Shown one piece after another: positions 6,529 to 33,414 of a DNA stretch of 34,518 nucleotides (its first letter is position 1; each line of letters begins with the position of its first letter). Where the stretch lies: positions 1 through 34,518 of IMG/VR virus record IMGVR_UViG_3300029653_000081, one strand, 5' to 3'. Source of the stretch: a virus (Duplodnaviria; Heunggongvirae; Uroviricota; Caudoviricetes). The position numbers and the translations under genes are program-made. The notes below the pieces were generated by a model, which was not told the DNA's origin, did not search any database, and saw only the letters and a program-made list of their open reading frames with translations.

Positions 6529-6537
6529 TGTATTCCC

Positions 6538-8127: not shown

Positions 8128-8187
8128 AACTTTCCCTGTTATGCGCCCCGCACGGGGGCGCTATGTTAAACGGAGAACTTCCCCTGA

Positions 8188-9915: not shown

Positions 9916-9939
9916 GGCACTTGTGTGAATCCCTTTTCG

Positions 9940-10070: not shown

Positions 10071-10160
10071 ATATCTATATATATCATATATTTATACATG
10101 AAATAGGCGCGGGACATTTTAGACAGGGGAGGGGGCTAAAGCCGCCTCCCACCAGCGGGA

Positions 10161-12334: not shown

Positions 12335-12430
12335 CTCCTTATCATTTCGTATGAGTGAATTGTACGTTTGATTCTGCTACGTGCAACTTTTTTTGATTCG
12401 TGCGTCAATTATTGCACGTAAAGAAATGGC

Positions 12431-12730
12431 GATGTGGCTATTAGATGTGTGCTGGAGGGATGATGCAGGACCAGAATGTGCGATAGAGGGAAGTCGCATT
12501 AAATTATGTGCTGTGGAGGGATCGCTGGTATCAAATATGTGTGCTGGAGGGAAAGGCAGAGAATTACATGTGCACTGGAGGGAAAAACGGATGGACAGAT
12601 GTGTGCTGGAGGGAAAGTCTGGGCAAACTGCGGGGCGTCCCCCTCCAGCGCACATCAAAAACAGGAAATTAGACAAGCCTTCCCGGCAGCACACATATTT
12701 TTAATGCAGCTTCCCTCCAGCACACACTTA
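12431..12730. repeat. incA: incA iteron array (about nine 19-bp RepA-binding repeats, both orientations)
   Basis: Direct copies of (G)ATGTGTGCTGGAGGGAAA-like repeats near 12444, 12474, 12504, 12536, 12567, 12598 and inverted copies near 12639, 12678, 12710. Confidence 0.85.
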
Positions 12731-13588
12731 TTCTGGGAGTTTCAGCTTTGGATTGCGAGAATGGACGATTACAAAACTTTCCCGGCCTTTCTTCTCAATT
12801 GAACAGTCGAGATAGCCGATTGTTTTAAGCTGTTCTATCGCTTTCTTAATGATACGGTTTTGCTCGCCAACAGCTGACTGCAAAGCCAGGCGCTCACGGA
12901 TTCGGGCGAAAGATAGCGGCAACGGATTCTGCGGAAGGCTTTCGATGAAAGTGTAAATGGCTTGTGCAGCTTCTTTCTTCGGAAGGGCACGCAAGGCGTG
13001 GTGTTGCAACAGAACGCGATAATCAAGCTGGAACAGCTCCCACAGCTTCGAATCAGCCTCCAGCTCTATCAGATCAAGGTCAGCATCAAAACGACCGACC
13101 TTTAGCAGACCAGTCTGATAGCCGCCTTTAGCATCTTTTCCGCGCTTAAAAGCGATACCCTTGTTACGTAAGCGTCCAAGTGATTCATGAATGGTTAAAC
13201 GCAGTTTCGCATCCAGACGTTTTGAGGGGAAACCACAGGCTTTAGCGAATTCCTGAAACGATAACTGGATGGTGTTTGAGGACAAGCCGTATTTGCTGAA
13301 CGCGTAGATGACACCGATCCACGTTTTGAAATCAGTATCCATATCGAGTCGAGGACCGGTGATTTTAATATCATCGTAACCCTCGGCTTTAGCTATCTCC
13401 AGCTGGGAAAACGCTTTGGTGGCATCAATCTCTTTACTTTCTCCTTTGCTCTTTGATGGCTTCGGAACGAATACCCCCAAGCGCATCAATGCTACAGGCT
13501 GGACAGTGTTGTTTGAATTAACTGTTAGTTCTTTTGCCTTACTTTCAATGTCTGCGTAAAGAATATCGGAGATAAATGATTGATTCAT
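12728..13588 (-). CDS. repA: Plasmid replication initiator RepA (286 aa)
   Basis: Flanked by iteron arrays on both sides and followed by parA-parB, the P1 plasmid replicon arrangement. Confidence 0.9.
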   Translation of the reverse strand: MNQSFISDILYADIESKAKELTVNSNNTVQPVALMRLGVFVPKPSKSKGESKEIDATKAFSQLEIAKAEGYDDIKITGPRLDMDTDFKTWIGVIYAFSKYGLSSNTIQLSFQEFAKACGFPSKRLDAKLRLTIHESLGRLRNKGIAFKRGKDAKGGYQTGLLKVGRFDADLDLIELEADSKLWELFQLDYRVLLQHHALRALPKKEAAQAIYTFIESLPQNPLPLSFARIRERLALQSAVGEQNRIIKKAIEQLKTIGYLDCSIEKKGRESFVIVHSRNPKLKLPE

Positions 13589-13599
13589 ATTACTTTTTC

Positions 13600-13870
13600 C
13601 GAATTGTGTGGATAGTTTTTATAAGTGGTGATAACTACCCAGGCTTTCCCGTCAGCACACATCCTATATCCCGCCAGCACACATTAGCAACCCGTCAGCA
13701 CACATTTTTATCCCTCCAGCACACATCGTTTTCCCTCCAGCACACATCGCGATACACTTCTAAGCCAGACGTGGCGCGGCCTGCAACGATCAGGGATCTA
13801 TATGGATCTAATTGGGATCTGTATGGACCTAATTATTGGATCTACCCAGTGGATAATGTGGATAAGTGAA
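13600..13870. other. oriR: Plasmid origin (oriR-like) including incC iterons
   Basis: Five inverted iterons (13645-13748, ...cagcacacat...); five heptamer repeats (G/T)GGATCT at 13793-13843, four with GATC; DnaA-box-like sequences tgtggatag (13607-13615) and agtggataa/tgtggataa (13848-13866). Confidence 0.85.
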
Positions 13871-13905
13871 AAACCGGCCAACATAGCCGGTTGGAAGGAA
13901 GGGTA

Positions 13906-14298
13906 TTATTCTACGCTTTCGATAAGAAGACCATGTTCATAGCATTTAAGCTCATCGCCTTCATACAGGAACTGGTATCCAATACCACCATATTCAGGCA
14001 CATTAGGGAATAACTCATCACTTACCGAAGAACAAATCACACCAATGCAGCGATCAACGCCTTCTCGTTCTTCAGTGCTGAAAAAATCCTCTTCGGTAAG
14101 AACATGAGTGCATTGCTCATCAGCATAGGTCGGAAATACATGCTCGATGCAATCCGGGTGTTTTAAACCAAGCTGATCGGCAAGCTCGAAAGCATGACGG
14201 TATTGTTCAGATCCTGGCTTGCCAACAGTGATTTGCTCAATTTTGTAGATTGAAGTCGCTTTGTTGATAGTTTGCTTTACTGTTACTTTATCAGACAT
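13906..14298 (-). CDS. Hypothetical protein (130 aa)
   Basis: ORF with coding-like composition next to the origin; no motif recognised. Confidence 0.35.
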   Translation of the reverse strand: MSDKVTVKQTINKATSIYKIEQITVGKPGSEQYRHAFELADQLGLKHPDCIEHVFPTYADEQCTHVLTEEDFFSTEEREGVDRCIGVICSSVSDELFPNVPEYGGIGYQFLYEGDELKCYEHGLLIESVE

Positions 14299-14309
14299 AA
14301 AAATCCCTT

Positions 14310-14642
14310 TTAGTTACCACTGATAGCGTGGTTGTAATCATTAACGTTGCGATTCTTCCTGTTAATCCCCATCAGCATCGTTTCTGTATCAAGGATATAG
14401 GCTGGCAGATCATCAAAATATTCACTGCTAAACTCTGGCATCCTGCACATAAACGCACTTTTGGGGGCAGGGTGATTAACCTTTGTCGGCGTCGGCGTTA
14501 AATTCGCTGATCGACTCCCGGAGCAACCGCTGAGTGTCAACAGGAATGCGCTGGCGAACACTACCCGACGCAACCAGTTGTTTCTGAACTTCAGCTTTTC
14601 GTTCCATTTGCCTGTCAGCATATTTGGCTTGTTCTGATTCAT
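14310..14642 (-). CDS. Outer-membrane lipoprotein, possible o-spanin (Rz1-like)
   Basis: Basic n-region KLKFRNNWLRR, hydrophobic VVFASAFLLTL, lipobox LSGC, then proline-rich PTPTKVNHPAPK. Its 5' part is embedded out of frame in the upstream gene. Confidence 0.5.
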   Translation of the reverse strand: MNQNKPNMLTGKWNEKLKFRNNWLRRVVFASAFLLTLSGCSGSRSANLTPTPTKVNHPAPKSAFMCRMPEFSSEYFDDLPAYILDTETMLMGINRKNRNVNDYNHAISGN

Positions 14643-14898
14643 TTTTCACTTCCTGGCTGTGAAAATGTTGCTCTGCTTTGTTCATCGTCTCAATGGTCTG
14701 GTTAAGATCCATTATTGACTTATCACGTTCCTTAACAGCCTGATCAAGACTGCCAATTTTCTCCATGGCTTGCTTTAGCTGATGACGTTCCCATGCAAAC
14801 CCAGCACCAACAAGTGCGCAAATCAGAACAAGAACACCAGTAGCAGCAAGTTTCTCCTTCAAAGACAAAGCTGTTTTTAACGTAGAAAAGAATGACAT
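14476..14898 (-). CDS. N-terminally anchored coiled-coil protein, possible i-spanin (Rz-like)
   Basis: ATG at 14898 preceded by AGGAGG; single TM segment TGVLVLICALVGAGFAW then a charged helical region. Overlaps the lipoprotein gene as in Rz/Rz1 pairs. Confidence 0.5.
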   Translation of the reverse strand: MSFFSTLKTALSLKEKLAATGVLVLICALVGAGFAWERHQLKQAMEKIGSLDQAVKERDKSIMDLNQTIETMNKAEQHFHSQEVKNESEQAKYADRQMERKAEVQKQLVASGSVRQRIPVDTQRLLRESISEFNADADKG

Positions 14899-14937
14899 GT
14901 CTTCCTCCTGAAGAAAAATTATCAATGAAGTCCTTTG

Positions 14938-15726
14938 TTACTGTGCCGCTTTGTTTAATTCATCAAGAACAGAATCAGGAACCAAAGCGGCAACTGCGCT
15001 GGCTGTGCTGGCCTTATTTGCTGATGCTTCCGCAAGCGCGGTACCGATAGCATGGTTATAAGCAGTTATGGCTACGTTGGCGCTTTCATTCGCTCGTTCA
15101 TACTGCTGTTGTAACGCAGTTGTGGGCGCTGTTGTCTGGTTGAAAACAACCCCAAACTGTTCAGTTGCTACTTTCAGAGATTCAATTTGCTCTTCTGTTA
15201 GTGCTGGTGGGGGAGTGGCAGTGCCGCCGCCTGAACCAGAGCCTGACGAGCTTCCTGAGCCAGTGTTAAGGGTCTGGTTAATCTCCCCCATAGCAGCAAC
15301 TAAACTTGATGTATTAAGCGCGTTTACAGCGTCCTCAAGCGATTTAGTAATAGTCACATCACCAATGGCAATAGAGATCGGCAGTTCTGAAACTTCTCGC
15401 TCATTAGCACGGCAGTAAACATCCCAACCAATATCGAGTTGAAGCAGCATTGACAGATCTGCATAACCAGCCAACAGGTCCGCGTGCTTAGTTGCCAGTT
15501 CGACAATGTTCGTTAAGCCTGTTGTGGTTGTTCTGATCGTTGAAACATAACTGGTAATAGTGTCGGGATAGACAATTGTATCCAAAATTAATCCGATCAA
15601 TTCTTCTGCAAGCTGTTTTGCCGTGTTAGCACTGTTTCGTGCCGATGTTATGGCACCAAGTGTTTTCATCCCACCGGCTGCGGCCAATTTTTTATATGCG
15701 GATAACTGGTAGTCTTTTTCCAGCAT
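14938..15726 (-). CDS. Two-domain protein joined by a Gly/Ser-rich linker (about 262 aa), function unknown
   Basis: ATG at 15726 with AGGAG SD (tracked ORF extends to 15783); linker GSGSSSGSGSGGGTATPPP. Confidence 0.4.
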   Translation of the reverse strand: MLEKDYQLSAYKKLAAAGGMKTLGAITSARNSANTAKQLAEELIGLILDTIVYPDTITSYVSTIRTTTTGLTNIVELATKHADLLAGYADLSMLLQLDIGWDVYCRANEREVSELPISIAIGDVTITKSLEDAVNALNTSSLVAAMGEINQTLNTGSGSSSGSGSGGGTATPPPALTEEQIESLKVATEQFGVVFNQTTAPTTALQQQYERANESANVAITAYNHAIGTALAEASANKASTASAVAALVPDSVLDELNKAAQ

Positions 15727-15734
15727 GATATCTC

Positions 15735-16019
15735 CTAACTTACCTGAACTAGGCCGTCTCCGGACGCTACGGTAGATCCGCATGAAACAGGGTCACCAAC
15801 GCATACGATCCCTTTACCATTGACGGTAAACCATGCCCTGGTTGATATAGCTTGCCCACCGTGCGTACTGTTTCCATCGGTATGCTGTGCATATTGCTTA
15901 CCATCAACTAACACTTCGACTCCGTTGACTTTAAGTAGTGGTTCACTCTCTACAGGAGGCCTGGATGGGAATCCTCCGTGCCCCGAACAAATGCTGTCTT
16001 TTGTTGCAATACTTGCCAC
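15735..16019 (-). CDS. PAAR-like small protein (94 aa), possible tail spike tip
   Basis: GTG start; CSGHGG, THGG and VNGKGIVCVGDPVSCGS motifs resemble PAAR repeats. Confidence 0.45.
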   Translation of the reverse strand: MASIATKDSICSGHGGFPSRPPVESEPLLKVNGVEVLVDGKQYAQHTDGNSTHGGQAISTRAWFTVNGKGIVCVGDPVSCGSTVASGDGLVQVS

Positions 16020-16100
16020 GTCGTCACCAATGATTTGCTCTGATTTTCGTTATTTTAACTTAGGTTATTTGTGGTCTGTATGGCGTTTACTTATTACAAA

Positions 16101-16117
16101 ATTGCTCTAATAAATAT
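16101..16117 (+). promoter_or_regulatory. C1 repressor operator upstream of the uhr-rdgC-dmt operon
   Basis: ATTGCTCTAATAAATAT (16 of 17); TTGCTC -35-like with TTATAT/TATATC about 16-17 nt downstream. Confidence 0.8.
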
Positions 16118-16188
16118 TGTTTTTTATATCGTGTTTTCGGTACCATTCAGCCATCGCCCTTCAATGGGCATTTGTTTGGAGTCGTCAG

Positions 16189-16473
16189 ATGCAGATGGAG
16201 CTAATAAGCCGCAAGGAGTTCGATAGCCGTGTAACCAGCGGTGAACTCGACAACTTGCAGGCTATCAAGGTGAAAGAAGGCTTTTGCCTCATTGGGAATC
16301 AGAGCGGAACAAATCGCGTTTTTATGCTTCGCCGTACGGATTTGAAGCCATTTGTCTGGAAGAACGAAATTGGTCCCAGCTCATACGCTCAAACGAGGGG
16401 GTGCCACAACTTGGCCTTTTTCTACAAAGACGAGCTTTCTGTGGTTGATATTCAAGGGTTACAACATGTTTAA
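16189..16473 (+). CDS. Small protein upstream of rdgC (uhr-like, 94 aa)
   Basis: ATG at 16189 with GGAG 8 nt upstream; overlaps the rdgC start by 8 nt. Confidence 0.45.
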
Positions 16474-17371
16474 GCACTGGAAAAATATTACTATTTATAA
16501 ACTTTCTCGTGAGGCGGATCTGACCGACTTAGAAGATAAAAAGAAAATGATCCTTTTCACGCCATGCGGTAGTCAGGATATGGCCAAGTTCGGTTTTGTA
16601 TCGCCATTTGGTGATAATTCCGAAGTTATCGCTATGCATGGAAATGGTTTTATCCTTGTTGAAGCAAAGCGCGAAACAAAAATTCTTCCCCCGCCGGTTA
16701 TCCAGCGAGCTATTCAAGAAAAAATTGAAAAACTTGAGCAAGAACAAGCGCGTAAACTGAAGAAAACAGAGAAGGACTCCCTGAAAGACGAAGTTCTGCA
16801 TTCTCTTCTGCCACGGGCTTTTTCAAAGTTTTCTGTTATCCAGGCGATCTACGACGGTTCAACTAAACGTATCTATATCAATGCCAGCGCGCGGCAGGCA
16901 GAGGATATGCTCGCGCTTATGCGTAAGTCTCTGGGTTCTCTTCCTGTTGTGCCACTAAGTGTTGAAAATCCCATTGAGTTAACGCTGACCGACTGGGTAC
17001 GTGATGCTAGTGCTCCACAGGGATTTCAAATGGGGGATGCGGCAGAACTTAAGGCAGTGCTTGAGGATGGCGGTATCGCCCGAGTGAAAAAGCAGGATTT
17101 GGGAAGCGATGAAATTTCCACACACCTGGAAGCTGGCAAGCTCGTCACTAAGTTGGCACTCGACTGGCAGAACCGCATTAAATTTACACTGGACCATAAC
17201 TTCAGCATTACCAGCGTCAATTTTGCGGATGAATTGCTTGAGCAGAACTCTGATATTGATAGTGAAGATGTTGCGCAGCGACTGGACGCAGATTTCTTCC
17301 TATTGACCAGTGAAATTTCGTGCCTGGTTGATGCTCTGGTAAATGCCCTTGGTGGAGAGGCTAAGCAGTGA
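16466..17371 (+). CDS. rdgC: RdgC-family recombination-associated protein (P1 hrdC-like)
   Basis: 301 aa from [15 protein letters not shown]; [38 protein letters not shown] and GSLPVVPLS closely resemble E. coli RdgC as recalled. Confidence 0.8.
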
Positions 17372-20250
17372 AAGAGCTGTGCTATGGATCTGTTTGCAGT
17401 GGAATTGAAGCCGCGAGTATTGCCTGGGAACCGTTGGGTATGCGTCCGGTTTGGTTTGCTGAAATCGAGCCTTTTCCATCGGCCGTTCTTGCGCTCCGCT
17501 GGCCCCATGTCGCCAACCTTGGCGACATGACAAAACTTGCCAAAAAAGTCTTGGCTGGGGAAATCGAATCCCCTGACGTGCTCGTCGGGGGAACACCATG
17601 TTTTACCGCGGGGCATATGGTTCTTTGTAAAAATGGTTATAAACCAATAGAAGATGTTTGCCCTGGCGATTACGTAGTCAGTCATCTCGGGCGGTTACAA
17701 CAAGTAAAAAGAGTTGGTTCAAAAATAGCTAATACGGGGTTACTTAATGCCGTTGGGCAGCCTTTAGGTATAAGAACAACCAATGACCATCCCTTCCTGG
17801 CTGTTCGGTGGAAAGCCCAAAACACCCGGAAAAATGGCACATATTTTAAGAGAGAGTTGTTGTCTGAACCGGAATGGCGAGCAGCATGTGATATGCCGGG
17901 ATATCAATGGTGCGCTCTAACTAATTTCAATATTGCATCTCCAGATATTTGTTCTCGGTTCTTGTCTGAAGAACAGGCTATGTATCTTGCGGGCGCTTAT
18001 GTTGGCGATGGATATATTAGGAGATGGAGAGGTAAATCTAAGAAGGCGGTTGTTTTTGGCATAAATTGCCAGAAATTGAGAAAGTTTCATTGCCGCATAC
18101 CAGAAAACATATTTTCCGTGGCAAGCGAAATCCGAGGGAGCATCAAAGTAACCTTGAATGATACGTGTTATGCCAATTGGCTTAATGAACATTTTGGCGA
18201 GTTAAGCCATGCTAAGCGTATCCCTGCATGGGTGATGTCGCATCCATTGCGTCATGTGTTTTTACAAGGCTATCTTGATACTGATGGGACACCAAGTGGT
18301 AAAGCGGGATTTAGAATTAATAGTGTTAGTCCTGCGCTTGCTTGGGGCGTTGCGGGGTTGTCACAGACTTGTGGTTATGTTTCTTCGGTCAGCTTTATTG
18401 AAGTTGAGCCCAAAAAAGTGATCGAGGATCGCGTGGTAAATCAACGGAATTATTATCAGGTAACAATCTGCCCGCAGAAATTGTCACGTAAATCAAGATT
18501 GGCTCATGGAATGCTTTTACGAACAGTCAAAGAGTTTAAATCGGTAGGCCTAGATACTGTATACAACATAGAAGTCGAAGGTGATCATTCCTATATCCTC
18601 AATGGTGCGGTGGTCCATAACTGTCAGGCATTCAGTATCGCGGGATTACGTGGTGGGCTTGATGATGAGCGTGGCGCGCTAACTTTAAAGTATGTGGAGC
18701 TTGCAAATGCAATTGACGACAAACGGGCTGAGTCATTTCTCAAACCAGCCGTTATTGTCTGGGAAAATGTCCCAGGAGTCTTGTCATCGGCAGATAACGC
18801 CTTCGGATGTTTCCTTGCCGGATTGGCTGGAGAAGATGCGCCATTTGAACCAGGTGATCGACCTGAATCAGGAAAAAGTAACGCGTTCTGGCGGTGGGAT
18901 GGCAAAACCGGTTGCCATGCTCCAAAGTGGCCGCAGTGTGGTTGTATTTATGGGCCGCAGCGAAAGGTGGCCTGGAGAATCCTTGATGCCCAATACTTCG
19001 GAGTGGCACAACGACGCCGACGCGTGTTTGTTGTCGCAAGTGCTCGAACAGACCTCGATCCCGCAACGGTACTTTTTGAGTTCGAAGGCGTGCGCCGGGA
19101 TATTGCGCCGAGCAGAGGCGAGGGGAAGGAAACTACCAGATATACTTCAAACATCGCTATCAGATCTTGCGATGATACAAACATAGTTGCCATGGCACAT
19201 GGGCAAGGAGGGGCTGAGATAAAAACCGATAATTCGGCACCAACTTTAACATGTAACCATGAAGCACCAATTGTATTGCTCGGCGACGGTAGAATACGCC
19301 GTCTTACCCCTGTCGAATGTGAAAGGCTGCAAGGTTTTCCTGATGGGCATACGTTGATCCCTACGGAAAAGCGTAAAAAAGTTTCTTCAGATGAACTGGC
19401 ATACCTTCGCAATAACTATCCTGATTTAAGCGAAGAAGAGGCCGCGATGCTTGCAGCTGACGGACCGCGTTACAAAGCGATCGGCAATAGTATGGCAATA
19501 CCAGTAATGCGCTGGATTGGCGATCGGATTACTAAGGCCGTATGTCGGCAGAAAGAAGGAAGTGAAACAAAAGAGCGAAAAGTTAAACCAGCGGCAGAAT
19601 TCGAACGGTCCATATTCAAATGGGCTGGTGGAAAATTTGGTGTTCTGGAACAAATCTTTCGCTATTTGCCAGAAGGGAAGCGCCTGATTGAACCTTTCGT
19701 TGGTGGCGGAGCTGTCTTCATGAATGCCGGATACCAGGAAAATCTGCTAAATGATGTGAATGCTGACCTGATTAACTTTTACAAGACTCTGCAACGCGAG
19801 GCGCATTCACTTATCACTCTGGCACATCGTTTCTTCCAGGACTACAACACACAGGAAGGATACCTGGCAGTACGGAATGCGTTTAACAAACAAGTCTATG
19901 ATGATTTACATCGCGCAGCGGCGTTTTTGTTCCTGAACCGACATTGTTTTAACGGATTGACGCGTTACAACCAGGCCGGTGAGTTCAATGTCGGTTATCC
20001 GGACATGAGTCTCGATAAAGCATGCGGTATTTATCACGGCATGCGAATTGAGCTTAAAGAACCAAATGGTAAAGCCCCGACGAAAGAGCAGATCGCCTGG
20101 ATGCGCAGGCTTAGAGAGGAAGGTTACTACGTCGTTCTTGCGTATGGTGCAGAACAAGCGATAACCGCCATCCTGGAATACATAAGCCTTAAAAAGGGTG
20201 AGGCTATTGAGCATGTATTGAACGGCGACAAGTGGTTGTATGCCACTTAA
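17368..20250 (+). CDS. dmt: Dmt-like multidomain DNA methyltransferase: C5-cytosine MTase interrupted by an intein, then a Dam-like domain and a nuclease-like tail
   Basis: GTG start coupled to the rdgC stop. C5-MTase motifs: [13 protein letters not shown] (split), [33 protein letters not shown]. Dam-like segment FKWAGGK...[10 protein letters not shown]...[23 protein letters not shown]. No DPPY-type motif anywhere in the protein. Confidence 0.85.
17599..18621 (+). other. Intein (341 aa) with LAGLIDADG homing-endonuclease motifs inside dmt
   Basis: Begins Cys (CFTAGHMVL), ends VVHN, followed by Cys+1; contains [11 protein letters not shown] and [10 protein letters not shown]. Excision would join GGTP to CQAFSIAG, restoring motif IV. 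Confidence 0.8.
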
Positions 20251-23272: not shown

Positions 23273-24535
23273 ATGAGCACTTCAGCACAAAAGCAATCAA
23301 TCGAAAATGTATCTATCCCTGATGTCCTGAATGCCGGTATCCCGGCCATTATCCAGAACATCCGGGCCGCGCAACGCCGCGTTAGTTGTGATGACCTCAC
23401 AGCACGTTTTTTTGATAATGCGGTTCAGTCAGCGGAGATGCTTCACGCACAGCTTATTGATGTTTATAACGCAGAAGCTGATAGCCATAACTCCCTGGTA
23501 GATGCAGCTGAAAATATGCAGTTGGATCTCGGTCTGAAGGGTAAAGAAATTGAAGAGCTTCAGCTGCAAATTGAACATTTGAAACGCCAGCAACAGGACG
23601 CGATCGACGATGCGACGCATGACTCCAACCAGCGTGCTGATAATGCCGAACGTATAAGCATTGAGCTGGAAACAAAACTCAATGAAATGACCGCGATGGT
23701 TGAACTGCGGAACTCACAGATTTCAACGCTAAAATCTCAATATAAAGAGATCATGAAACTTGATCCTTTTAACCTTGAGAAACGCTATAACAAAGCTAAA
23801 AGCGAGCGACAGGAACTGCGTAAGCAGGTCGCCGACCTTAACCAACAGCTCAAAAAAACTATTAAAGATGCAAGCGAGGCGCGCGTGGCATTTGCTAATA
23901 AAAAAGCAGAGGTTACCGCGCTGGTTAATGAGAATGCCAAATTTGCGACGCTCAAGAAGGAAATGTATGGCATTACTGAGCGCCGTTTCCCTGCAAGCAA
24001 ACTTCATCCGACGTTAGGGCAAATCTCCTTCTTCCCGCGCCTCCTGGCTTATGGGATCTCATCGCCTAAAGAGTTCAATAACGAGCGTCCTTATATCGTT
24101 TCTAAGCTGGACTTTGCTTATCAGTTCTGCTGCGACATGGGCTATGCCATTGATATCCGAATCAACGAATGGTTGATGCCAAACTTCCAGCCGTTGGCAA
24201 TTTTCCGCGAGTTTCAGCCGGAAGGTTGGGTAGAGTTCTTCCATGAATTGATCTGTAAAGAGATGGAAAGCCGCCGCCCGGAATTGGTCCGTCGAGTTGA
24301 GTGGGCGCAAGAGGTTATGTTGGCAGATGCAGAGCTGCCGTTCGAACCGGAATTCATTGATGATCTGGCAACTAAAGGGCTGCATACCCTGTTTGATGTG
24401 GTTACCCGCCGTCATGAGCAGTTGGTTGTCGAATTGGGTTTAGAGGAAACTGCGGCAAGAAGACTTCTCGATGTTTGCTATGCACGTAGCGATGCATGGG
24501 AAAAAGAGAACGGCGGCACTATTTACGTTCGCTGA
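23273..24535 (+). CDS. Coiled-coil protein with unknown C-terminal domain (420 aa)
   Basis: Residues about 60-250 are heptad-like and Q/E/K-rich (EELQLQIEHLKRQQQDAIDDA...); C-terminal region contains FAYQFCCDMGYAID. Confidence 0.5.
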   Translation: MSTSAQKQSIENVSIPDVLNAGIPAIIQNIRAAQRRVSCDDLTARFFDNAVQSAEMLHAQLIDVYNAEADSHNSLVDAAENMQLDLGLKGKEIEELQLQIEHLKRQQQDAIDDATHDSNQRADNAERISIELETKLNEMTAMVELRNSQISTLKSQYKEIMKLDPFNLEKRYNKAKSERQELRKQVADLNQQLKKTIKDASEARVAFANKKAEVTALVNENAKFATLKKEMYGITERRFPASKLHPTLGQISFFPRLLAYGISSPKEFNNERPYIVSKLDFAYQFCCDMGYAIDIRINEWLMPNFQPLAIFREFQPEGWVEFFHELICKEMESRRPELVRRVEWAQEVMLADAELPFEPEFIDDLATKGLHTLFDVVTRRHEQLVVELGLEETAARRLLDVCYARSDAWEKENGGTIYVR

Positions 24536-24554
24536 TAGTTACAGTGTCACTTTT

Positions 24555-24588
24555 AATGCTGGTGGAGTGCTCCCACCAGCATTTTTTT
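24555..24588 (+). terminator. Rho-independent terminator after the coiled-coil gene
   Basis: aatgctggtgg-agtgctc-ccaccagcatt followed by ttttttt. Confidence 0.8.
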
Positions 24589-24607
24589 CGTCCAATGAGG
24601 AGGGCAT

Positions 24608-25114
24608 TTGAGTATTTTCAATAAACACGCACACCAGGAACGTCCGTACATCGTCATAGTAGATATTGATGGGACGATATCAGAGGCAACGGAAGACAGG
24701 CTGCATTTACTTCCACCACCTGGCAAAGGTGCATTAACAGAGCACTGGAACGAGTTTAACCTTGCCTGTGACACTGATGCTCCCATCACTCCAGTTATTG
24801 ATATGGTGCGCCAGTTATTTAACGTTTACACGGTCTGGTTTGTAACCGGGCGCTGTGAGATCGCAAGGGATAAAACACGAGCCTGGCTGCGGAAGTACGT
24901 AACAAACGGGGCTGAGCCTTTGCTATCTATGCGTCCTGCCACCGATGACAGAAATGACGGTCCAGCAAAGATTGATCTCCTGAAGAAAATTGGTCTAAGT
25001 AAAATTGCGTTCGCGCTGGAAGATAAGATTGAAGTGGCGCGTGTGTTCAGGAGTCATGGCGTACTTACATTAATGGTCAGGGAGTATGAAAATGCGCTTC
25101 TTCATCAACAATAA
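24608..25114 (+). CDS. HAD-superfamily phosphatase-like protein (168 aa)
   Basis: TTG start 6 nt after AGGAGG; motif I IVIVDIDGT and motif II-like WFVTGR. Confidence 0.55.
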   Translation: MSIFNKHAHQERPYIVIVDIDGTISEATEDRLHLLPPPGKGALTEHWNEFNLACDTDAPITPVIDMVRQLFNVYTVWFVTGRCEIARDKTRAWLRKYVTNGAEPLLSMRPATDDRNDGPAKIDLLKKIGLSKIAFALEDKIEVARVFRSHGVLTLMVREYENALLHQQ

Positions 25115-25130
25115 TTGTTCTAATAAATCT
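25114..25130 (+). promoter_or_regulatory. C1 repressor operator abutting the HAD gene stop
   Basis: ATTGTTCTAATAAATCT (15 of 17); TTGTTC -35-like with TAAAAC about 17 nt downstream. Confidence 0.65.
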
Positions 25131-25212
25131 TGATTTTTAAAACAGAGAAAGTAAAAATAAAAACATGCCGCAAGGCGCGGCATGTTTCCAATCAATCACA
25201 GGAGCTGAAAAT

Positions 25213-25299
25213 ATGAACACGGCATTCAAAATCATTATGGCCGCGATCTATTTCTGGCTGTTCTCTATCACTTTTGACGGCATCGTCGCGCATGGGTAA
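25213..25299 (+). CDS. Small hydrophobic peptide (28 aa)
   Basis: AGGAG 8 nt upstream of ATG; MNTAFKIIMAAIYFWLFSITFDGIVAHG*. Preceded by a perfect 8-bp hairpin (catgccgc/gcggcatg, about 25165-25185). Confidence 0.4.
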   Translation: MNTAFKIIMAAIYFWLFSITFDGIVAHG

Positions 25300-25378
25300 G
25301 GGGAGTATATTAGCCATTTGGAACCCCACGAGCTCTTGCGGGTTTAATTAAGAACCCGCAAGAAAAACACGAATTGGG

Positions 25379-28300
25379 CTATATTTTTCCGCCTACGCCT
25401 TTAAACTTCTCAATAAACGAGACGATTTTCTGGAAAACTGCCTGTTTTTTCGTTTTATATTGCGGATTCAACGGACTAAGTTTTGGTAATGTTTCGTTTA
25501 ATTCTGTGCCATTTTCGGTGGCGTATTCGCGTTTTAAAGACGTGCGAATATAGCGTTTTGCTGCATCTTCATTGAGATTTTCTTCTTTTATCAATGCTTC
25601 TGCTTCACGTTGCTGTTCGCGTTGAGCAAACGTAAAGAATGCCTCAATGATACTGGCTTTGTCTGGTAAATCATCCAGGTTCGTTTGCTGAATAAAATCG
25701 ACCACCAGGCCCTCTTTCGCCCGGTTCCCCAGGCTTGAACGAATTAAGCGTTTGACCTCTTCGATCATTTCGCCCTTGCCTTTATTTTGTCTGTTGTGTT
25801 CGAAAATCAGTCCAAGGATATAATCCAGGTTTATTTCCTGAGACTTCAGCAAATCGACCTCAAAAACCACGTCATCCCAGTCAGTGGTTGATTTCTCTTT
25901 TTTCTCAGCTTCTTTCTCACGGCGCTGCCAGTCGCGAATATCGTTATAGGCAGAACGATAATCCTGAATCTTGCGATCAGCAGGGAGACGAATTGTTTGC
26001 AATTCAGCGAACTTTTCATCATCCACATAATGTTCTGCTTTGAATTTTTCTACCGCAACAGGATCGCTAAGATCGATTTGTTGCAGGGCTTTTAGCGTGG
26101 CAAATTCATCATAGTTTTGCAGGATGTTCTCGGCACGCAGGTATTCGCCAAACAGTTTAACGAAGTCTTTCTTCTCTTTTTCACTTTCAATACTGGCAGG
26201 GTCAGGGAACCGTTGTTCCAGTTCTGAAACTACTGCCATAAAGCCGCGTTTGGCTTCACCGGTGGCAGCATCAGTAAAACCTTCCATATACTCTGCATAA
26301 CTCTTTTCTAACACCACATTTTTGGTATTTTTATCACCAAACAGCGTTATGGCATCAATGGTTGAGCGTTCCAGATCCCGAAAAGTGACAATGTTACCGA
26401 AGGTTTTAGTGGCGTTATAAATGCGGTTGGTGCGGGAAAATGCCTGCATCAGGCCGTGAAAACGCAAGTTTTTATCGACGAATAGCGTGTTCAATGTTGG
26501 AGCGTCGAAGCCGGTTAAAAACATCCCAACGACAATTAACAGATCGATATCCTGATTTTTAACCCGTTGGGCTAAATCGCGATAGTAGTTCTGAAAACCG
26601 TTACCGTCGGTGCTGAAGTTAGTTTTAAAATAGCTGTTATACTCACGAATTGCAGCGTCAAGAAACTCTTTAGCACTGCTGTCCATTGCGCTGGTATCAA
26701 AAGTTTCATCGGAAATTTCACCAATGGCATTTTGTTCTTCATTAGCGGCAAAGGAGAAGATTGTCGCAACACGCAGCGGTTTATAAGTTGCAGATTTATT
26801 AGCGGCTTCCTCTTGTAACCGTTTAAACGCCGCGTAATAGGCTTTTGCAGCATCCACGCTGCTCACTGCCAACATAGCATTAAAACCTTTTGCGCCAGGG
26901 AAAGTACGGTGCGTCTTCTGGCGGAAGTTATTCAGAATATATTGCGTAATTTCCTGTATACGCATGGGATGAAGAAACGCCTGCTGATTTTCAGCCGCAC
27001 TTAGTTTTTTCTCGTCAGTTTCTGTCTCTAAAGACTTAAACTGTGGCCGCACATCGTTGTAGTCCACCTTGAATTTGAGCACTTTTTCATCACGAATCGC
27101 ATCGGTAATTACATACGAATGCAATTCACGACCAAATACGCTGGCGGTCGTTTCTGAGCCTAAGGCGTTTTCCGGGAAAATAGGTGTGCCGGTAAAACCA
27201 AACTGATAATAGCGTTTGAATTTCTTCTTCAGGTTTTTCTGCGCTTCTCCAAACTGGCTGCGGTGGCATTCATCAAATATAAACACCACTTGCTGATTAT
27301 ATACAGGCAGGTCGCTTTCTGCTTTCATCAGGTTATTGAGTTTCTGAATAGTAGTGACGATAATTTTGTTATCGTCCTTATCCAGATTTCGTTTAAGGCC
27401 TGCGGTATTTTCCGAGCCGTTGACGCTGTCTGGCGAAAAACGCTGATATTCCTTCATGGTCTGGTAATCGAGGTCTTTCCTGTCGACCACAAAGAAGACT
27501 TTATCAATAAAGTCCAGCTCTGTTGCCAGACGCGCGGCTTTAAAGCTGGTGAGGGTTTTACCAGAACCGGTAGTGTGCCAGATATACCCACCGCTTTCCG
27601 GTTTTGACCAGTTCTTCGCTGTAAAGGAACTCTTAATTTTCCACAGAATGCGCTCGGTGGCGGCAATCTGGTACGGTCGCATCACCAGTAGCGTCTGACT
27701 ACTGTCAAAAACGCTGTAGTTCACCAGAACATTCAGCAGAGTATGTTTCTGGAAAAAGGTAGCGGTAAAGTCTTTGAGGTCTTTAATCAGCGTGTTGTCT
27801 GATTTCGCCCAATTCATGGTGAAGTCAAAACTGTTTTTATCGCGCTTTGTCGTGTTGGCAAAATAACGGGTATCGGTGCCGTTAGAAATGACAAACAGTT
27901 GCAGATACTTAAACAGGGAATTTTCGCTGTTAAAACTCTCTTTACTGTAACGATGTATCTGGTTGAAAGCCTCACGAATCGCCACCCCGCGTTTTTTTAG
28001 TTCGATTTGCACCAGCGGTAAACCATTAACCAGGATCGTGACGTCATAACGGTTAGCATGAGAACCCGTCTGTTCAAACTGCTGGATAATCTGCACCTTA
28101 TTGCGCATGAGATTCTTTTTATCTATCAAATAGATGTTCTCAAGTCGCCCGTCATCAAAAATAAAGTCGCAGATATAGTCGATATGGATTTTACGGGTTT
28201 TATCCAGAATACCATCGCTGGGGTTGTCCAGATACTGCTCCGTGAAGCGCCGCCACTCGCTGTCATTAAACATCACACCATTGAGGCTCTGAAGCTGTTC

Positions 28301-28495
28301 CCGAACATTGGACAGCATTGCCGACTGTGATTTTACGGAAATAAATTCATAACCCTGATTTTGCAGGTCCTGAATCAGTTCACGTTCCAGGTCCGATTCG
28401 CTCTGGTAGCTGTCGCCTGTTGGCTCAGCTTTGATGTACTTATCAAGAACGATAAAGTTATTGGATTCAGCAATGGTGTGTGTCTGATGAGTCAT
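25379..28495 (-). CDS. hsdR: Type I restriction enzyme R subunit HsdR (1038 aa)
   Basis: Helicase motifs TTGSGKT and [10 protein letters not shown]; size and position after hsdM-hsdS. Confidence 0.9.
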
Positions 28496-28616
28496 AGCGC
28501 ATCCTTTGTGCCGTCTGGCAAGGGCCGGAAGGGGGGTAATGGTGACTTCCGGCGCGTAAAAAATAGTCTATATACTGACCGGGTGTTAAGGTGGTCCGAT
28601 CGGTAGCAATGATCAA

Positions 28617-29822
28617 TTAATTACTGGCAGTTTCAGGTTTCGGGAAACTGAACAGTAAATCACGGTAGTATTCGTATTGTTTCTGGCGCAACTCGATTTC
28701 ACGCGGAAGACCTTCGGTGATGGAAGCTGCGATTGCATCAAACTTATCCAGAATATCCACAATACGCCCCTGTTCGTCTAAAGATTTTTGAGGGTGAGAT
28801 GGGTATGGAATAGGTACTCTGACTTGTTTCAGTGCATTAGCATTAAACTGTGGTTGCCCACCACCAGATACTAATTTATTAGCCTGTTCCCAAAAAAAAT
28901 CACTTTGTGCAAAGTGCCAGTAATATTTGGCATTAATAATCGTTTTATTTAGGTTCAACTTTATTAAAAAACCAGCGTATACTGCTGGATAATCTTCTTC
29001 AAAAATCATTGTTTTACCAAAGGTTGCCCCAGTTCTTGCCATGAGTAAATCATTTTTGTCTAAGGTATATTTCTCATTTTCCTCATTTAATTCAACGTAC
29101 ATTGGGTTTTCTTTCGATAGCTTCCCGTCTTTATTTATGTCAGTAATTCTCACGAAACGGGCATCTCCTGAATCCATGGCTTTGGCTGCATATCCATATG
29201 TAAAATCTCCAATTTCCCCCAAAGTCTTCCACTCAACCTCACCATCTTTAAAACTCAACAACTGGTCGCGATAGTAGTTGTACTGTTTTTTACGCATGTT
29301 AAGCTCAGCGGTAAGCTCAGCGGTAAGTGCAGTAAATTTATCCAGAATCCGAACGATTTCAGACTGGATGGCAAGGGATTTTTCCGGATTATCCGGGCAG
29401 GGGATGGGGATAGGGAAATTCTCTAAGGTTGATAGCACGATATATGTCATTGCCGCGCTATTTGTTCTTTCCTCGAGATATTTCTTCAGGCTATGGCTAA
29501 GCACAAAATACAAAAATCTAACACTTACATTTTCGTCGAAATTTGTCAGAACATAGGTGCGCTGATAAGCCTCAAACTTGCCGATGTAATGCTTCACCTC
29601 ACCAACATTCGCATTGCCTGCAATCAGCAATGCCTCTGTATCCCAGCGGAATTTATCAATTTTGCTTGTCTCTTTGGCTGTCGTGAAGAACATATACTCT
29701 CCATCATCAACAGCCGCATTCGCATTAAGCTTTCCTGTTTCAATTTTGCAAGTTTGCCCAAGTGTCTTCCACTCAACCTCAACCCCATCCAGCAATTTTT
29801 CCAGATAACTCATCTCGCTCAT
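28617..29822 (-). CDS. hsdS: Type I specificity subunit HsdS (401 aa)
   Basis: Two target-recognition halves each ending in a conserved repeat ([19 protein letters not shown] and [19 protein letters not shown]); 4-nt overlap with hsdM. Confidence 0.85.
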
Positions 29823-31381
29823 TTCTGCACCTCGCAGCCTTCAATTTCAGCCACAATTGCATCAATATCTTTACGCAACTGGTCGATTTTGCTGACCGTG
29901 GTTTTCAGCTCTGCATTCAGCTCACCGATATCGATAATTTCGCGGTTATCTTTCGCTTCCACATAGCTGCTCACCGACAGGTTATAGTCATTCGCGACAA
30001 CAGTCTCAAACGCAACAGATTTCGCCAGATGAGCAACATCTTCCTTGCTGGCAAATACCTGCATAATCTGTTCGATATGGGCATCGGTCAGGATATTGTT
30101 GTTGGTTTCTTTTTTGAACAGTTCGCTGGCATCAATAAACTGAACTTTGGTATCCGTTTTATGTTTAGACAGCACCAGAATGTTTACAGCAATAGTGGTG
30201 CCAAAGAACAGGTTCGGTGCCAGTGAAATCACGGTTTCGACATAGTTATTATCGACCAGATACTGACGGATTTTCTGCTCCGCGCCGCCACGGTAAAAAA
30301 TACCCGGGAAGCAGACAATCGCAGCACGACCTTTGGCCGAAAGATAGTTCAGCGCATGTAGTACAAACGCAAAGTCAGCTTTGGATTTGGGGGCCAGGAC
30401 GCCAGCCGGGGCAAAACGTTCATCGTTAATCAGCGTCGGGTCATCGCTGCCAATCCATTTCACCGAATACGGCGGGTTAGAAACGATGGCATCAAACGGT
30501 TTTTCATCTCTGAAGTGTGGCTCAGTCAGTGTATTACCCAGCTTGATATCAAACTTGTCGTAGTTGATGTTGTGCAAAAACATGTTCATACGTGCCAGGT
30601 TATAGGTTGTATGGTTGATTTCCTGACCAAAAAAGCCTTCTTCGATGATATGGTTATCAAACTGCTTTTTAGCCTGCAACAACAGTGAGCCGGAACCCGC
30701 TGCCGGGTCGTAGATTTTGTTAACGTTGGTCTGCCCGTGCATAGCCAGTTGTGCAATCAGCTTGGAGACGTGCTGCGGTGTAAAGAACTCACCGCCTGAC
30801 TTACCGGCATTTGCCGCATAGTTAGAAATCAGGAACTCATAGGCATCACCGAACAGGTCAATCTGATGTTCGTTGAAGTCACCAAGTTTTAACCCTTCAA
30901 CCCCTTTCAGAACCGCAGCCAGGCGGGCATTTTTATCTTTAACGGTGTTACCCAGGCGGTTACTGGTGGTATCGAAATCAGCAAACAAACCTTTGATGTC
31001 TGCTTCTGAAGGGTAGCCGTAAGCAGAACTTTCGATAGCAACGAAGATGCTGTTTAAATCTGCGTTCAGTCTGTCATTGGTATTTGCTTTCGCAGCTACG
31101 TTGCAGAAAAGCTGACTGGGGTAGATGAAGTAGCCTTTAGTTTTGATGGCATCGTCTTTAATGTCATCAGTAATTACGCTGTCATCCAGTTTCGCATAAC
31201 AGATACTGTCATCACCGGCTTCAATATAACTGGAAAAATTTTCGCTGATAAAACGGTAGAAAAGTGCGCCCAGAACGTATTGCTTAAAATCCCATCCATC
31301 GACCGAACCCCTGACATCGTTAGCAATTTGCCAGATTTGACGATGAAGCTCTGCACGTTGTTGAATACTTGTCATTTTCAT
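29819..31381 (-). CDS. hsdM: Type I N6-adenine methyltransferase HsdM (520 aa)
   Basis: NPPY motif ([10 protein letters not shown]) and AdoMet-binding [11 protein letters not shown]. Confidence 0.9.
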
Positions 31382-31489
31382 CCACTTATTTCAGGCTTAT
31401 GTAATTGGCGGTGATTCTACAGCAACTTGGATGCTTTAGCAGTTCGGACATTAGGCTACGAATGACCTGCCTAGAGGTTTGTTAAGCCG

Positions 31490-31552
31490 CAAAGTGCTGG
31501 TGCTTTATGCCTGTGAAGTTTATAATTGTGTACACATAACGAGTACACGAGG
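31490..31552 (+). promoter_or_regulatory. phd-doc promoter with Phd operator palindromes
   Basis: TATAAT at 31521-31526 followed by palindromic GTGTACAC (31528-31535) and GAGTACAC (31541-31548), then the SD. Confidence 0.65.
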
Positions 31553-31557
31553 TGTTT

Positions 31558-31779
31558 ATGCAATCCATTAACTTCCGTACCGCGCGCGGCAACCTTTCTG
31601 AAGTGCTCAACAATGTTGAAGCCGGGGAAGAGGTTGAAATCACCCGCAGAGGTCGTGAGCCAGCAGTAATTGTCAGCAAGGCTACTTTCGAAGCCTACAA
31701 AAAAGCGGCGCTGGATGCTGAATTTGCATCCCTGTTTGACACCCTGGACTCCACCAACAAGGAACTGGTTAACCGATAA
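31558..31779 (+). CDS. phd: Phd antitoxin (73 aa)
   Basis: [39 protein letters not shown]... matches P1 Phd as recalled; stop overlaps doc start (TAATG). Confidence 0.95.
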
Positions 31780-32159
31780 TGAGGCATATATCACCGGAAG
31801 AACTTATTGCGCTTCATGATGCGAATATAAGCCGCTACGGCGGCCTGCCGGGAATGTCAGATCCGGGTAGGGCAGAGGCCATTATCGGGAGAGTTCAGGC
31901 CAGAGTTGCCTACGAAGAGATCACCGACCTTTTCGAAGTCTCCGCCACCTACCTGGTGGCTACAGCGAGAGGGCATATATTCAATGATGCCAATAAGCGT
32001 ACCGCGCTAAACAGCGCGCTGCTATTTCTACGCCGTAACGGGGTGCAGGTATTTGATTCACCTGAACTGGCAGACCTTACTGTAGGCGCTGCGACTGGCG
32101 AGATATCTGTATCTTCTGTCGCCGACACGTTACGTAGATTGTATGGTTCTGCGGAGTAG
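31779..32159 (+). CDS. doc: Doc toxin (Fic-fold kinase, 126 aa)
   Basis: Fic-type motif [10 protein letters not shown]; tight coupling to phd. Confidence 0.95.
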
Positions 32160-32163
32160 ATTA

Positions 32164-32343
32164 ATGGCACGCAAATACAACAAATTGTCCCGTGAAGCGT
32201 TAAAGATGCTTCTTGATGGCGTGAGTCGCCGCGAGGTAAAGCAATACCTGGTTGGTAAGCAAATTGGAGCCAGGACTGCTATTGCTGTGTTATGCCGTCA
32301 GGAAATGGTTGTGCTTAAACAGAGAATGCCGGGCAGCAGATAA
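32164..32343 (+). CDS. Post-doc small protein (pdcA-like, 59 aa)
   Basis: ATG 5 nt after the doc stop; assigned by position. Confidence 0.4.
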   Translation: MARKYNKLSREALKMLLDGVSRREVKQYLVGKQIGARTAIAVLCRQEMVVLKQRMPGSR

Positions 32344-32370
32344 AGCCCAATCAGTGATTAAAGGTGTGAT

Positions 32371-33414
32371 GTGAAAGCCGTAATTACTCCCTTTGTACAG
32401 AAAGAGCTTGGCCTCGCCACGTTCAAAGTGGATCAGGAGGTCAGAAAGCTGGTGGAGGCTGGCCGTAAATTTATTATGGAGCCGGTGCCGCGTGAGTTAA
32501 TCGAGCACATGGAAGACGGCCTCGTTGTTACCGAGCAAACCATGGCAACAAATGAGGCGTTGCAGCCGTTTTTTAACAGCGATGAACTGTTTCGCCGTAT
32601 TGGTGGAATTGACGCGCTGGTGGCGTGGTTGCGCAGGAAAGAGGGGCAATGCCAGGCCGCAGATCGTAGTTGGTGTGACAACCATATTGTCCACGCTGAA
32701 CGAGACAATAGCGCGGTGTTGTTGTGCTGGCATCACGATCACCATTATCGGATGCGTGGTTTTAATGAGCTGAAAGAAACGCTGCACAATAATCGCGTTA
32801 ACTGGATACTGGATGTCGCCCGTCAGGAAATGGGCCTTTCAAATAGCCATGATTTAAGTATTCAGGAGCTGTGCTGGTGGGCTTTCATGCGCAACATGAT
32901 GCACCTGATGCCGGAAGAAGTCTGCCGCATATCAATAAATAAGATGAAGGCTATTCCGCAGGATAGCGGACCTCTGAAAGAGGCGGATATTCGCCCGTAT
33001 GACGATCGCGCTACAGCATATGTTCAGATGATGGAAGAACGCGCCGCGCCGATGCGTGCAAAAGTATGCCCTGTGGATGTTGACTCCGACCCAGGTATGG
33101 CGCATTTCAAAATACCAAAACTTCAATCGCTAAAATTGCCCGAGTACATGGACTTTGTGGCTTCCCGTCCATGCTGTGGCTGTGGAGCTGCGGGAGCTGG
33201 CGCTCACATTACGCCTTATATAGTTCGTCATAGTCGATTATGCGCGCATGACATTTATGCTATTCCTCTGTGCCAGTCATGCCAGCGTGATATTGAGCGT
33301 GACCGCGATAATTGGGAGAAGACGCACGGTAGGCTGGCGATGCATCAACGATTGTTCTTTGATTACGCGCTTGGAGTTGGCGCTATCACAAGTCATTCGT
33401 CGAGTGTTAGATAA
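32371..33414 (+). CDS. Post-doc protein (pdcB-like, 347 aa), Cys/His-rich
   Basis: GTG start with AAAGG SD; Cys/His clusters ([31 protein letters not shown]) suggest metal binding. Confidence 0.5.

Follow-up and report, generated by a model that had tools for sequence, protein, structure and literature searches.

A complete type IC hsd cassette of the EcoR124I/EcoDXXI family at the pap-phd site of a P1-like phage-plasmid

The window, that is, the whole stretch of 34,518 nucleotides that was analysed, carries hsdM, hsdS and hsdR beside phd-doc (Table 1). As the preliminary description had stated, the hsd genes are intact on the minus strand: the ORF list gave three ATG-started, uninterrupted reading frames of 1038, 401 and 520 aa, and hsdM diverges from the plus-strand phd across 176 bp (31382-31557, up to the ATG of phd). 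The gene order is the type IC order M-S-R, with a 4-nt overlap between hsdM and hsdS and a 121-bp gap before hsdR. HsdR matched that of EcoR124I (PDB 2w00) with ~98% identity over all 1038 residues (2277 bits), and contains the Pfam domains HSDR_N, SWI2_SNF2, T1R_D3-like and EcoR124_C as well as the motifs E165-x-K167, Q179xxxY, GSGKT310 and DECH408. HsdM was identical to EcoR124 HsdM (7bst_D) at 517 of 520 residues (99.4%), with the domains HsdM_N and N6_Mtase and the motifs DPAAGSG225 and NPPY302. Judged by these alignments, both subunits belong to the EcoR124I sequence group. HsdS is a type IC specificity subunit with central TAEL repeats; identity to EcoR124I HsdS is 99-100% in its conserved N-terminal and central regions and 82% in the C-terminal one. 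PADLOC labelled the hsd proteins REase_I, Specificity_I and MTase_I. Plus-strand antisense ORFs in hsdM and hsdS (e.g., 29493-29966 and 29762-30226) were taken as chance ORFs, because the products of the minus-strand genes are almost the same as proteins of solved structure.

Table 1. Features of the hsd locus and its flanks, in window coordinates
Feature	Position	Strand	Basis or remark
pap (P1 3'-phosphatase), left P1-type flank	24608..25114	+	Pfam HAD_PNKP; 98% identical to P1
C1 operator Op88/OpmgT homologue, ATTGTTCTAATAAATCT	25114..25130	+	Mapped by alignment from P1 annotation
P1-derived hairpin, canonical intrinsic terminator	25158..25190	-	14-15 bp stem, then T-run
Small hydrophobic ORF, 28 aa, MNTAFKIIMAAIYFWLFSITFDGIVAHG	25213..25299	+	Conserved in P1, phi456 and 673R5
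hsd cassette	25304..31481		6,178 bp without P1 homology (blastn against P1, junction alignments)
Cassette-specific GC-rich hairpin, 12 bp	25334..25365		Fold -19 to -20 kcal/mol, z = -4.5 and -6.5
hsdR, type IC restriction/translocase subunit, 1038 aa	25379..28495	-	EcoR124I HsdR match, Pfam, motifs
hsdS-hsdR intergenic region	28496..28616	-	Candidate separate hsdR promoter (promoter scan)
hsdS, specificity subunit, 401 aa	28617..29822	-	Two Pfam Methylase_S stretches; alignment to 7bst_A
TRD2 of hsdS	28785-29207	-	Alignment to EcoR124 HsdS (7bst_A)
TAELTAEL repeat of hsdS, aa 167-174	29301-29324	-	Alignment to EcoR124 HsdS
TRD1 of hsdS	29409-29768	-	Alignment to EcoR124 HsdS (7bst_A)
hsdM, N6-adenine methyltransferase subunit, 520 aa	29819..31381	-	EcoR124 HsdM match, Pfam
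hsdM upstream region, cassette-specific	31382..31481	-	Sequence reading; 100% identical in pIP1206
Pphd promoter, P1-type	31498..31526	+	-10 TATAAT at 31521-31526; P1 annotation mapped by alignment
phd, addiction antitoxin, 73 aa	31558-31779	+	Pfam PhdYeFM_antitox
doc, addiction toxin, 126 aa	31779-32159	+	Pfam Fic/DOC; HIFNDANKR motif

The candidate promoter of hsdR (TTAACA-18-TATTTT, 28589..28560) is sigma-70-like, with only a 9/12 consensus match. The hsdM promoter probably lies in the cassette-specific upstream region; the consensus scan gave no site there, and reading of the sequence pointed to a candidate -10 element (TAGAAT, 31419..31414) with a preceding TG. Downstream of hsdR, the terminator scan picked out the P1-derived hairpin, which folds at -22.4 kcal/mol (z = -6.4), and it is likely that hsdR transcripts end at this minus-strand terminator. 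The cassette-specific hairpin lies 14-45 nt past the stop codon of hsdR and lacks a U-tract on both strands. An Rfam search over 24500-32500 found nothing credible, the single match being GcvB far below threshold (E = 0.78).

Blastn and junction alignments against P1 revealed that the cassette replaces the pmgT-humD block of P1. On the P1 map, junction 25303|25304 falls at 84482 and junction 31481|31482 at 87969, a distance of 3,486 bp, indicating that ~3.5 kb of P1 DNA was exchanged rather than that the cassette was simply inserted. The 28-aa ORF, annotated as Orf75 in phi456, stops 4 bp ahead of the left junction. No transposon-like or site-specific insertion signature was found, in that the cassette ends carry no terminal direct or inverted repeats; the only repeats of note in the cassette are internal hsdS duplications. 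The two P1 positions are already marked in the misc_features of the P1 GenBank record (NC_005856) as the points where homology to the hsd flanks of EcoDXXI and R124/3 ends, credited to Tyndall et al. 1997 (Mol Microbiol 23:729). According to this record, the DNA downstream of hsdR in R124/3 is 98% identical to P1 84399-84482. In EcoDXXI the geometry is the same: homology to P1 breaks off at 84482 on the downstream side of hsdR, and on the upstream side of hsdM it starts again at 87969 and extends through phd-doc. The window has this P1-flanked type IC layout, with the P1 Op88 region downstream of hsdR and phd-doc upstream of hsdM. The replicons differ, since EcoDXXI was described on a conjugative plasmid and EcoR124 resides on an IncF conjugative plasmid, whereas the window derives from a P1-like phage-plasmid. 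It is highly probable that a complete type IC hsd cassette of the EcoR124I/EcoDXXI family has here replaced pmgT-humD in a P1-like phage-plasmid, at the junctions known since 1997.

The preliminary description had read the system as cargo, placed at a variable site in a P1-like genome, and this was borne out. When hsd genes were sought at the same position in canonical P1 and P7, they were absent from both: between pap and phd, P1 holds pmgT-pmgU-pmgV-upfM/N/O-hot-lxr-humD, and P7 a different gene set with IS903 and humD. The proposed comparison across P1-like genomes found the hsd arrangement also in phi456, 673R5 and PLSDB plasmids. The hsdS gene of phi456 is interrupted by an IS5-family insertion, and hsdR and hsdM are split in the 673R5 annotation; thus, intact hsd genes are not universal. 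The exact hsdS allele of the window was found in 25 plasmids, and at least 80% of the cassette is held by 1,142 of 5,426 complete E. coli genomes. With the junctions documented since 1997 and the arrangement present in hundreds of plasmids, the cargo interpretation is right but already known.

The term cargo would be a misnomer if the hsd-bearing state were the usual or ancestral one and the pmgT-humD block of P1 the odd variant. The plasmid counts lend this view some weight: the pap|hsdR junction occurs in 254 of the 618 PLSDB plasmids with pmgS-pap, at least 80% of the P1 stretch from pap through pmgT...humD to phd was found in only 14 PLSDB plasmids, and a laboratory P1 isolate without most of pmgT-humD indicates that the block is dispensable. 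However, the GC content of the cassette (43.8%) is below that of the flanks (47.6% and 49.0%), the same hsd genes are also carried by other replicons and by chromosomes (1,235 chromosomal places, where only the coding part is matched), and the site is filled differently again in P7 and others ('region 8', PMC9603915). Since such traits mark a module as accessory and exchangeable, the ancestral-state view is improbable, and we retain the cargo interpretation. The type III system of P1 (res/mod, EcoP1I) lies elsewhere, as had been noted, at a different genome position outside the window. Both EcoP1I and the hsd genes of the window are restriction-modification systems in recognised variable regions of P1-type prophage-plasmids (1 and 8, PMC9603915), whereas the type III genes are unlike the type I hsd genes. 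In CP122701.1, the closest complete relative examined, the res/mod slot is occupied by IS1 and tet(A), and the annotation lists no type III genes; the element in the window may differ in this respect.

The specificity of the system was approached through HsdS. The gene order and the two TAEL repeats are shared with EcoR124I/EcoR124II (plasmids R124 and R124/3; PDB 2w00, 7bst), whereas both TRDs differ from those of EcoR124I (23% and 20% identity), which excludes its target, GAA N6 RTCG, for the HsdS of the window. RM.EcoST101IX of pIP1206 (Tn6602) shares hsdM, the length of hsdR and the doc-phd-hsdM layout, and recognizes CCAG N6 RTTG (bioRxiv 10.1101/2020.06.07.138552). Its HsdS, however, has 427 aa, three TAEL repeats and other TRDs, and its 42% overall identity to the window's 401-aa protein is confined to the conserved regions. 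Thus, neither the EcoR124I nor the RM.EcoST101IX specificity applies, and the half-sites probably differ from both GAA / RTCG and CCAG / RTTG; this TRD comparison covered these two systems. The best 120 database relatives of HsdS bear generic names only, and no system with these TRDs is listed in the methylome papers examined. The number of TAEL repeats is linked to spacer length in type IC HsdS, and EcoDXXI has three repeats and the target TCA N7 RTTC (PMC3874165). From the two repeats in the window, an interval of 7 between the methylated adenines is predicted, which with 3+4 half-sites corresponds to an N6 spacer. The earlier suggestion that the target be predicted from the recognition domains thus yielded a predicted spacer and failed for the half-sites.

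The likely mode of action can be outlined from the near-identical EcoR124I enzyme. hsdM and hsdS would be co-transcribed and hsdR expressed from its own promoter. The M2S methyltransferase would bind a bipartite, asymmetric target defined by the pair of recognition domains in HsdS and methylate one adenine per strand. On an unmethylated target the complex would recruit one HsdR and then a second, and the HsdR-bearing complex would translocate DNA at the expense of ATP and cut it away from the target. That a new host tolerates establishment may be due to weak assembly of the R2 complex; assembly-based restriction alleviation has been described for type IC systems (PMC12707154). The cassette would thereby shield the lysogen, and hence the plasmid, from incoming unmodified DNA.

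The hsd promoters are unproven, P1 genes for morphogenesis and replication, ~11 kb in all, have been lost from the element, which is thus decaying elsewhere, and the related copies in phi456 and 673R5 are disrupted, all of which would suit a silent or methylation-only system, e.g., one with HsdR unmade or the enzyme inactive in an apparently defective element. This is very unlikely, since all three ORFs have their full length and preserved motifs, their products are 98-99% identical to EcoR124I subunits of known biochemical activity, and identical hsdS alleles with intact neighbours occur in 25 plasmids from different hosts, which is unexpected for a drifting pseudogene. The C1-operator-controlled PpmgT promoters are kept to the left of the cassette (25114-25160), directly downstream of the operator homologue, which has one mismatch to that of P1. 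They converge on the hsdR 3' end, and the terminator scan found no plus-strand intrinsic terminator between them and hsdR. Prophage induction might lower HsdR through PpmgT interference and so make restriction specific to lysogeny, and the TRD1 and TRD2 pair might separately define an uncharacterised target; we consider this a highly speculative proposal with little chance of being correct.

The phd and doc genes overlap by 1 nt, the Doc motif fits HxFx(D/N)(A/G)N(K/G)R, and the pair is ~98-99% identical to that of P1 at the nucleotide level. The operator palindromes for Phd/Doc come after Pphd. The juxtaposition of a host-killing module and a restriction system had been called a typical defence-island arrangement. 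As a functional claim this was unsupported, since phd-doc belongs, as an addiction module, to the conserved core of P1-like elements (PMC9603915; PMC10879196), has its own divergent promoter and is present with or without hsd. No further defence genes are clustered near hsd: only the type I system scores in PADLOC, which gave no hit for Phd and weak candidate-family hits for Doc, and the surrounding genes pap, pmgS, pdcA/B and lpa belong to the P1 backbone. The locus thus does not hold the several independent anti-phage systems that define a defence island.

Physical linkage could nevertheless suggest that hsd and phd-doc are one integrated defence/addiction island, moving and acting as a unit, with post-segregational killing or abortive infection by Doc selected through linkage to the restriction system. 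In the conjugative IncF plasmid pIP1206, hsdMSR and phd-doc(+pdcA) lie together as a block between IS5 and IS1 copies, with an hsdM-phd intergenic region 100% identical to that of the window. At least 80% of the pap-hsd-phd-doc stretch was found in 476 plasmids and the pap junction in only 254, indicating that many hsd copies travel with phd-doc outside the full P1 context. This co-transfer is, however, sufficiently explained by recombination in the P1 flanks. Moreover, P1 and P7 carry phd-doc at the same place without hsd, phd-doc is among the most conserved P1 genes (PMC9603915; PMC10879196), the two sets of genes are divergently transcribed with Pphd wholly inside the P1-derived part, and the PADLOC result provides no defence-system profile for Phd. 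The integrated-island view is accordingly unlikely, and the phd-doc next to the cassette is the addiction module of P1 itself, independently regulated.

The locus is a further copy of the well-studied EcoR124-type family at a very common site, real but ordinary and already known. It illustrates how restriction systems, together with phd-doc, are moved by P1-like phage-plasmids among phage-plasmids, conjugative plasmids and chromosomes, and how type IC specificity diversifies when recognition domains are swapped while HsdM and HsdR stay nearly invariant. Canonical laboratory P1 is unrepresentative of the natural population at the pap-phd site. Strains carrying such an element would gain a restriction barrier and a methylation mark, and many of these plasmids also bear resistance genes.

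The three ORFs on the minus strand encode a complete set of type I R-M subunits, which PADLOC labeled as the restriction, specificity, and methyltransferase subunits. Their positions, and the 176 bp between the start codons of hsdM and phd, are exactly as read in the preliminary description. HsdM and the EcoR124 M protein (PDB 7bst) are identical except at 3 of 520 residues, and HsdR matches EcoR124I HsdR over its entire length (PDB 2w00; 2277 bits, ~98% identity). The DPAAGSG and NPPY motifs of HsdM are intact, as are the nuclease residues E165-x-K167, QxxxY, the GSGKT Walker A motif, and the DECH box of HsdR. Judged from these sequences, the system is a type IC enzyme in which the HsdM/HsdR chassis of EcoR124I carries a different specificity subunit; EcoR124I is one of the best-characterized type I enzymes.

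Features of the hsd cassette and its surroundings
Feature	Position	Strand	Description
C1 operator, PpmgT	25114-25130		one mismatch to P1
Strong terminator	25190..25158	minus	in P1-derived flank
hsdR	25379-28495	minus	1038 aa; Pfam HSDR_N, SWI2_SNF2, T1R_D3-like, EcoR124_C
Candidate hsdR promoter	28589..28560	minus	9/12 sigma-70 match, in the 121-bp gap before hsdR
hsdS	28617-29822	minus	401 aa; Pfam Methylase_S, two stretches
Two TAEL repeats	29301-29324	minus	HsdS central region, aa 167-174; from sequence
hsdM	29819-31381	minus	520 aa; Pfam HsdM_N, N6_Mtase
Candidate TG-TAGAAT element	31419..31414	minus	upstream of hsdM; sequence reading
phd	31558-31779	plus	
doc	31779-32159	plus	

HsdS aligns over its full length with the EcoR124 specificity protein, and the identity is sharply modular: 100%, 99%, and 82% in the N-terminal, central, and C-terminal conserved regions, respectively, but 23% and 20% in the two target-recognition domains (TRDs), which span aa 19-138 and 206-346. 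Among the best 120 HsdS relatives, TRD2 is shared by all but two, with 94-100% identity (98-100% for nearly all of them), and is paired with a large variety of TRD1s, which vary in length, while recurrence of TRD1 is limited to the query's own 90% cluster of 209 member sequences. The direct repeats D3 and D4 within hsdS are duplicated conserved segments, which make TRD swapping possible. The methyl-adenine interval in this family follows the number of TAEL repeats, being 7 with two (EcoR124I, GAA N6 RTCG) and 8 with three (EcoR124II, EcoDXXI, and EcoprrI) (PMC3874165). The enzyme of the IncF conjugative plasmid pIP1206 has three repeats and the target CCAG N6 RTTG, consistent with this rule. 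Since HsdS of the window has two repeats, an interval of 7 is predicted.

By analogy with EcoR124I, hsdM and hsdS would be translationally coupled through their 4-nt overlap. Their transcription presumably starts upstream of hsdM, in 100 bp that are specific to the cassette, where a TG-TAGAAT element was noted by eye and a promoter consensus scan found no site. The sigma-70 match before hsdR is consistent with the separate hsdR promoter typical of the EcoR124I family, and hsdR transcripts probably stop at the terminator in the P1-derived flank. If the enzyme behaves as EcoR124I does, an M2S methyltransferase would modify its bipartite target on both strands, and unmodified DNA would be translocated and cleaved by R1 and, subsequently, R2 complexes. 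Entry into naive hosts is safe for type IC systems because assembly of R2, the complex competent for cleavage, is weak (PMC12707154). The C1-controlled PpmgT promoters of P1 are kept and are now directed into the 3' end of hsdR. In a terminator scan, the stretch separating them from hsdR contained no plus-strand terminator, so they might damp HsdR expression upon induction, although we consider such an effect very improbable.

The cassette junctions were determined by local blastn against P1 and by alignments with P1 and the phages phi456 and vB_EcoM-673R5, all of which were concordant. P1-type DNA ends at 25303, just past a short ORF that is conserved and 5 bp before the start position of pmgT in P1, and starts again at 31482, where the humD stop codon lies. 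In place of the pmgT-pmgU-pmgV-upfM/N/O-hot-lxr-humD block (3,486 bp in P1), the element thus carries the 6,178-bp cassette. The GC content of the cassette is 43.8%, compared with 47.6% and 49.0% in the flanks, and a search for terminal repeats at the cassette ends found none. In P1 coordinates, the junctions are at 84482 and 87969. The P1 record has features ending or starting at these very positions: 84263-84482 is 96% identical to E. coli DNA downstream of the EcoDXXI hsd locus, 84399-84482 is 98% identical to plasmid R124/3 DNA downstream of hsdR, and 87969-88647 is 98% identical to conjugative-plasmid DNA upstream of the EcoDXXI hsd locus. In a laboratory P1 derivative (OP279344.1, 40749-41610), a shortened pmgT nearly abuts phd and pmgU-humD are absent, indicating that the replaced block is dispensable for that isolate.

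The system had been proposed to be accessory cargo at a variable site. Canonical P1 and P7 have no hsd genes there and carry other content, and pmgT-humD is one of eight highly variable regions in a survey of P1-like phage-plasmids (PMC9603915), which bears the proposal out. The hsd cassette at this site is already known and very common. In PLSDB, the pmgS-pap segment is present in 618 plasmids, 254 of which share the pap-hsdR junction, and the 8-kb pap-hsd-phd-doc stretch is covered to 80% or more in 476 records. P1's own pap-pmgT...humD-phd stretch was found at the same coverage in only 14 plasmids. The exact hsdS allele (100% identity) occurs in 25 PLSDB plasmids from E. coli, E. fergusonii, Klebsiella, and Salmonella. 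In a set of 5,426 complete E. coli genomes, 80% or more of the cassette is present in 1,142; among the chromosomal copies listed, the match is confined to the coding part (query ~76-6081), and the plasmid copies share the non-coding cassette ends too.

Only two phage records contain the cassette, both with damaged hsd genes. In phi456 (5618-8055), hsdS is broken by an IS5-family DDE transposase labeled 'putative baseplate hub protein'; in vB_EcoM-673R5 (2469-8420), hsdR and hsdM are annotated in pieces, perhaps because of frameshifts or sequencing errors. The 110-kb Klebsiella phage vB_KpnS_p4727 (PQ492289.1, 4119-10052) has an hsd locus with 82.7% identity across 62% of the query. Together with 303 matching Klebsiella plasmids, this indicates that type IC cassettes also reside on other phage-plasmid or plasmid groups.

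The remainder of the element departs from P1 at several places. At 19993-19998, ~11 kb present in P1 and in the close relative CP122701.1 is absent, removing the dmt 3' end, three tRNAs, tciABC, ban, dbn, pmgL, and the pmgM 5' end, as well as the baseplate and tail genes gp5, gp6, gp24, gp7, gp25, and gp26. Truncated dmt is fused to truncated pmgM over a 6-bp overlap, a junction spanned by none of 567 matching PLSDB plasmids. The element is likely a defective plasmid of P1 origin, no longer able to make virions. The window starts inside what we take to be the end of an IS1 copy (1-141, terminal sequence ...CAATAAGTTGGAGTCATTACC), which abuts P1 DNA within simB and accounts for the more than 5,000 plasmids matching the first 25 kb. 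At 3983-4532, ~550 bp stands in place of the rlfA-rlfB-pmgF segment of P1 (~1.8 kb) and matches a region of CP122701.1 with an annotated hokD type I toxin (approximately 4303-4458 in the window). Two stretches, 10064-12444 in the parA/parB area and 17601-18622 internal to dmt, have no megablast match in CP122701.1, which is otherwise 98-99% identical, and by sequence comparison look like further mosaic segments; P1 matches 4533-19998 at 99.7%, both stretches included. CP122701.1, an IncY P1-like plasmid with an identical hsd cassette, has IS1, tetR/tet(A), and other cargo in the slot of P1's res/mod (4737-12865). The PLSDB gene table, which is incomplete and so does not prove their absence, shows no type III genes there.

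The location of hsd beside phd-doc was initially regarded as a typical defence-island arrangement, and such adjacency could reflect functional coupling of the two modules. Against this reading, phd-doc occurs without hsd in P1 and P7, Pphd (-10 at 31521-31526) lies entirely in the P1-derived part, and no further defence genes were found nearby by Pfam, PADLOC, or comparison with P1. In P1-like elements, few genes are as conserved as phd-doc (PMC9603915, PMC10879196). Functional coupling is improbable. What best accounts for the two modules lying side by side is where the exchange site is located, together with their joint transfer when recombination takes place in the P1 flanks, and a functional defence island is the less likely reading. 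In pIP1206, a pdcA-doc-phd-hsdM-hsdS-hsdR block is flanked by IS5 and IS1 copies, and the intergenic sequence from hsdM to phd shows 100% identity with that of the window, which indicates that the hsd and phd-doc block moves between replicon types. This movement agrees with the proposal made in 1997 (Tyndall et al.) and with recent evidence placing R-M systems among the genes that phage-plasmids and plasmids exchange most frequently (PMC10879196).
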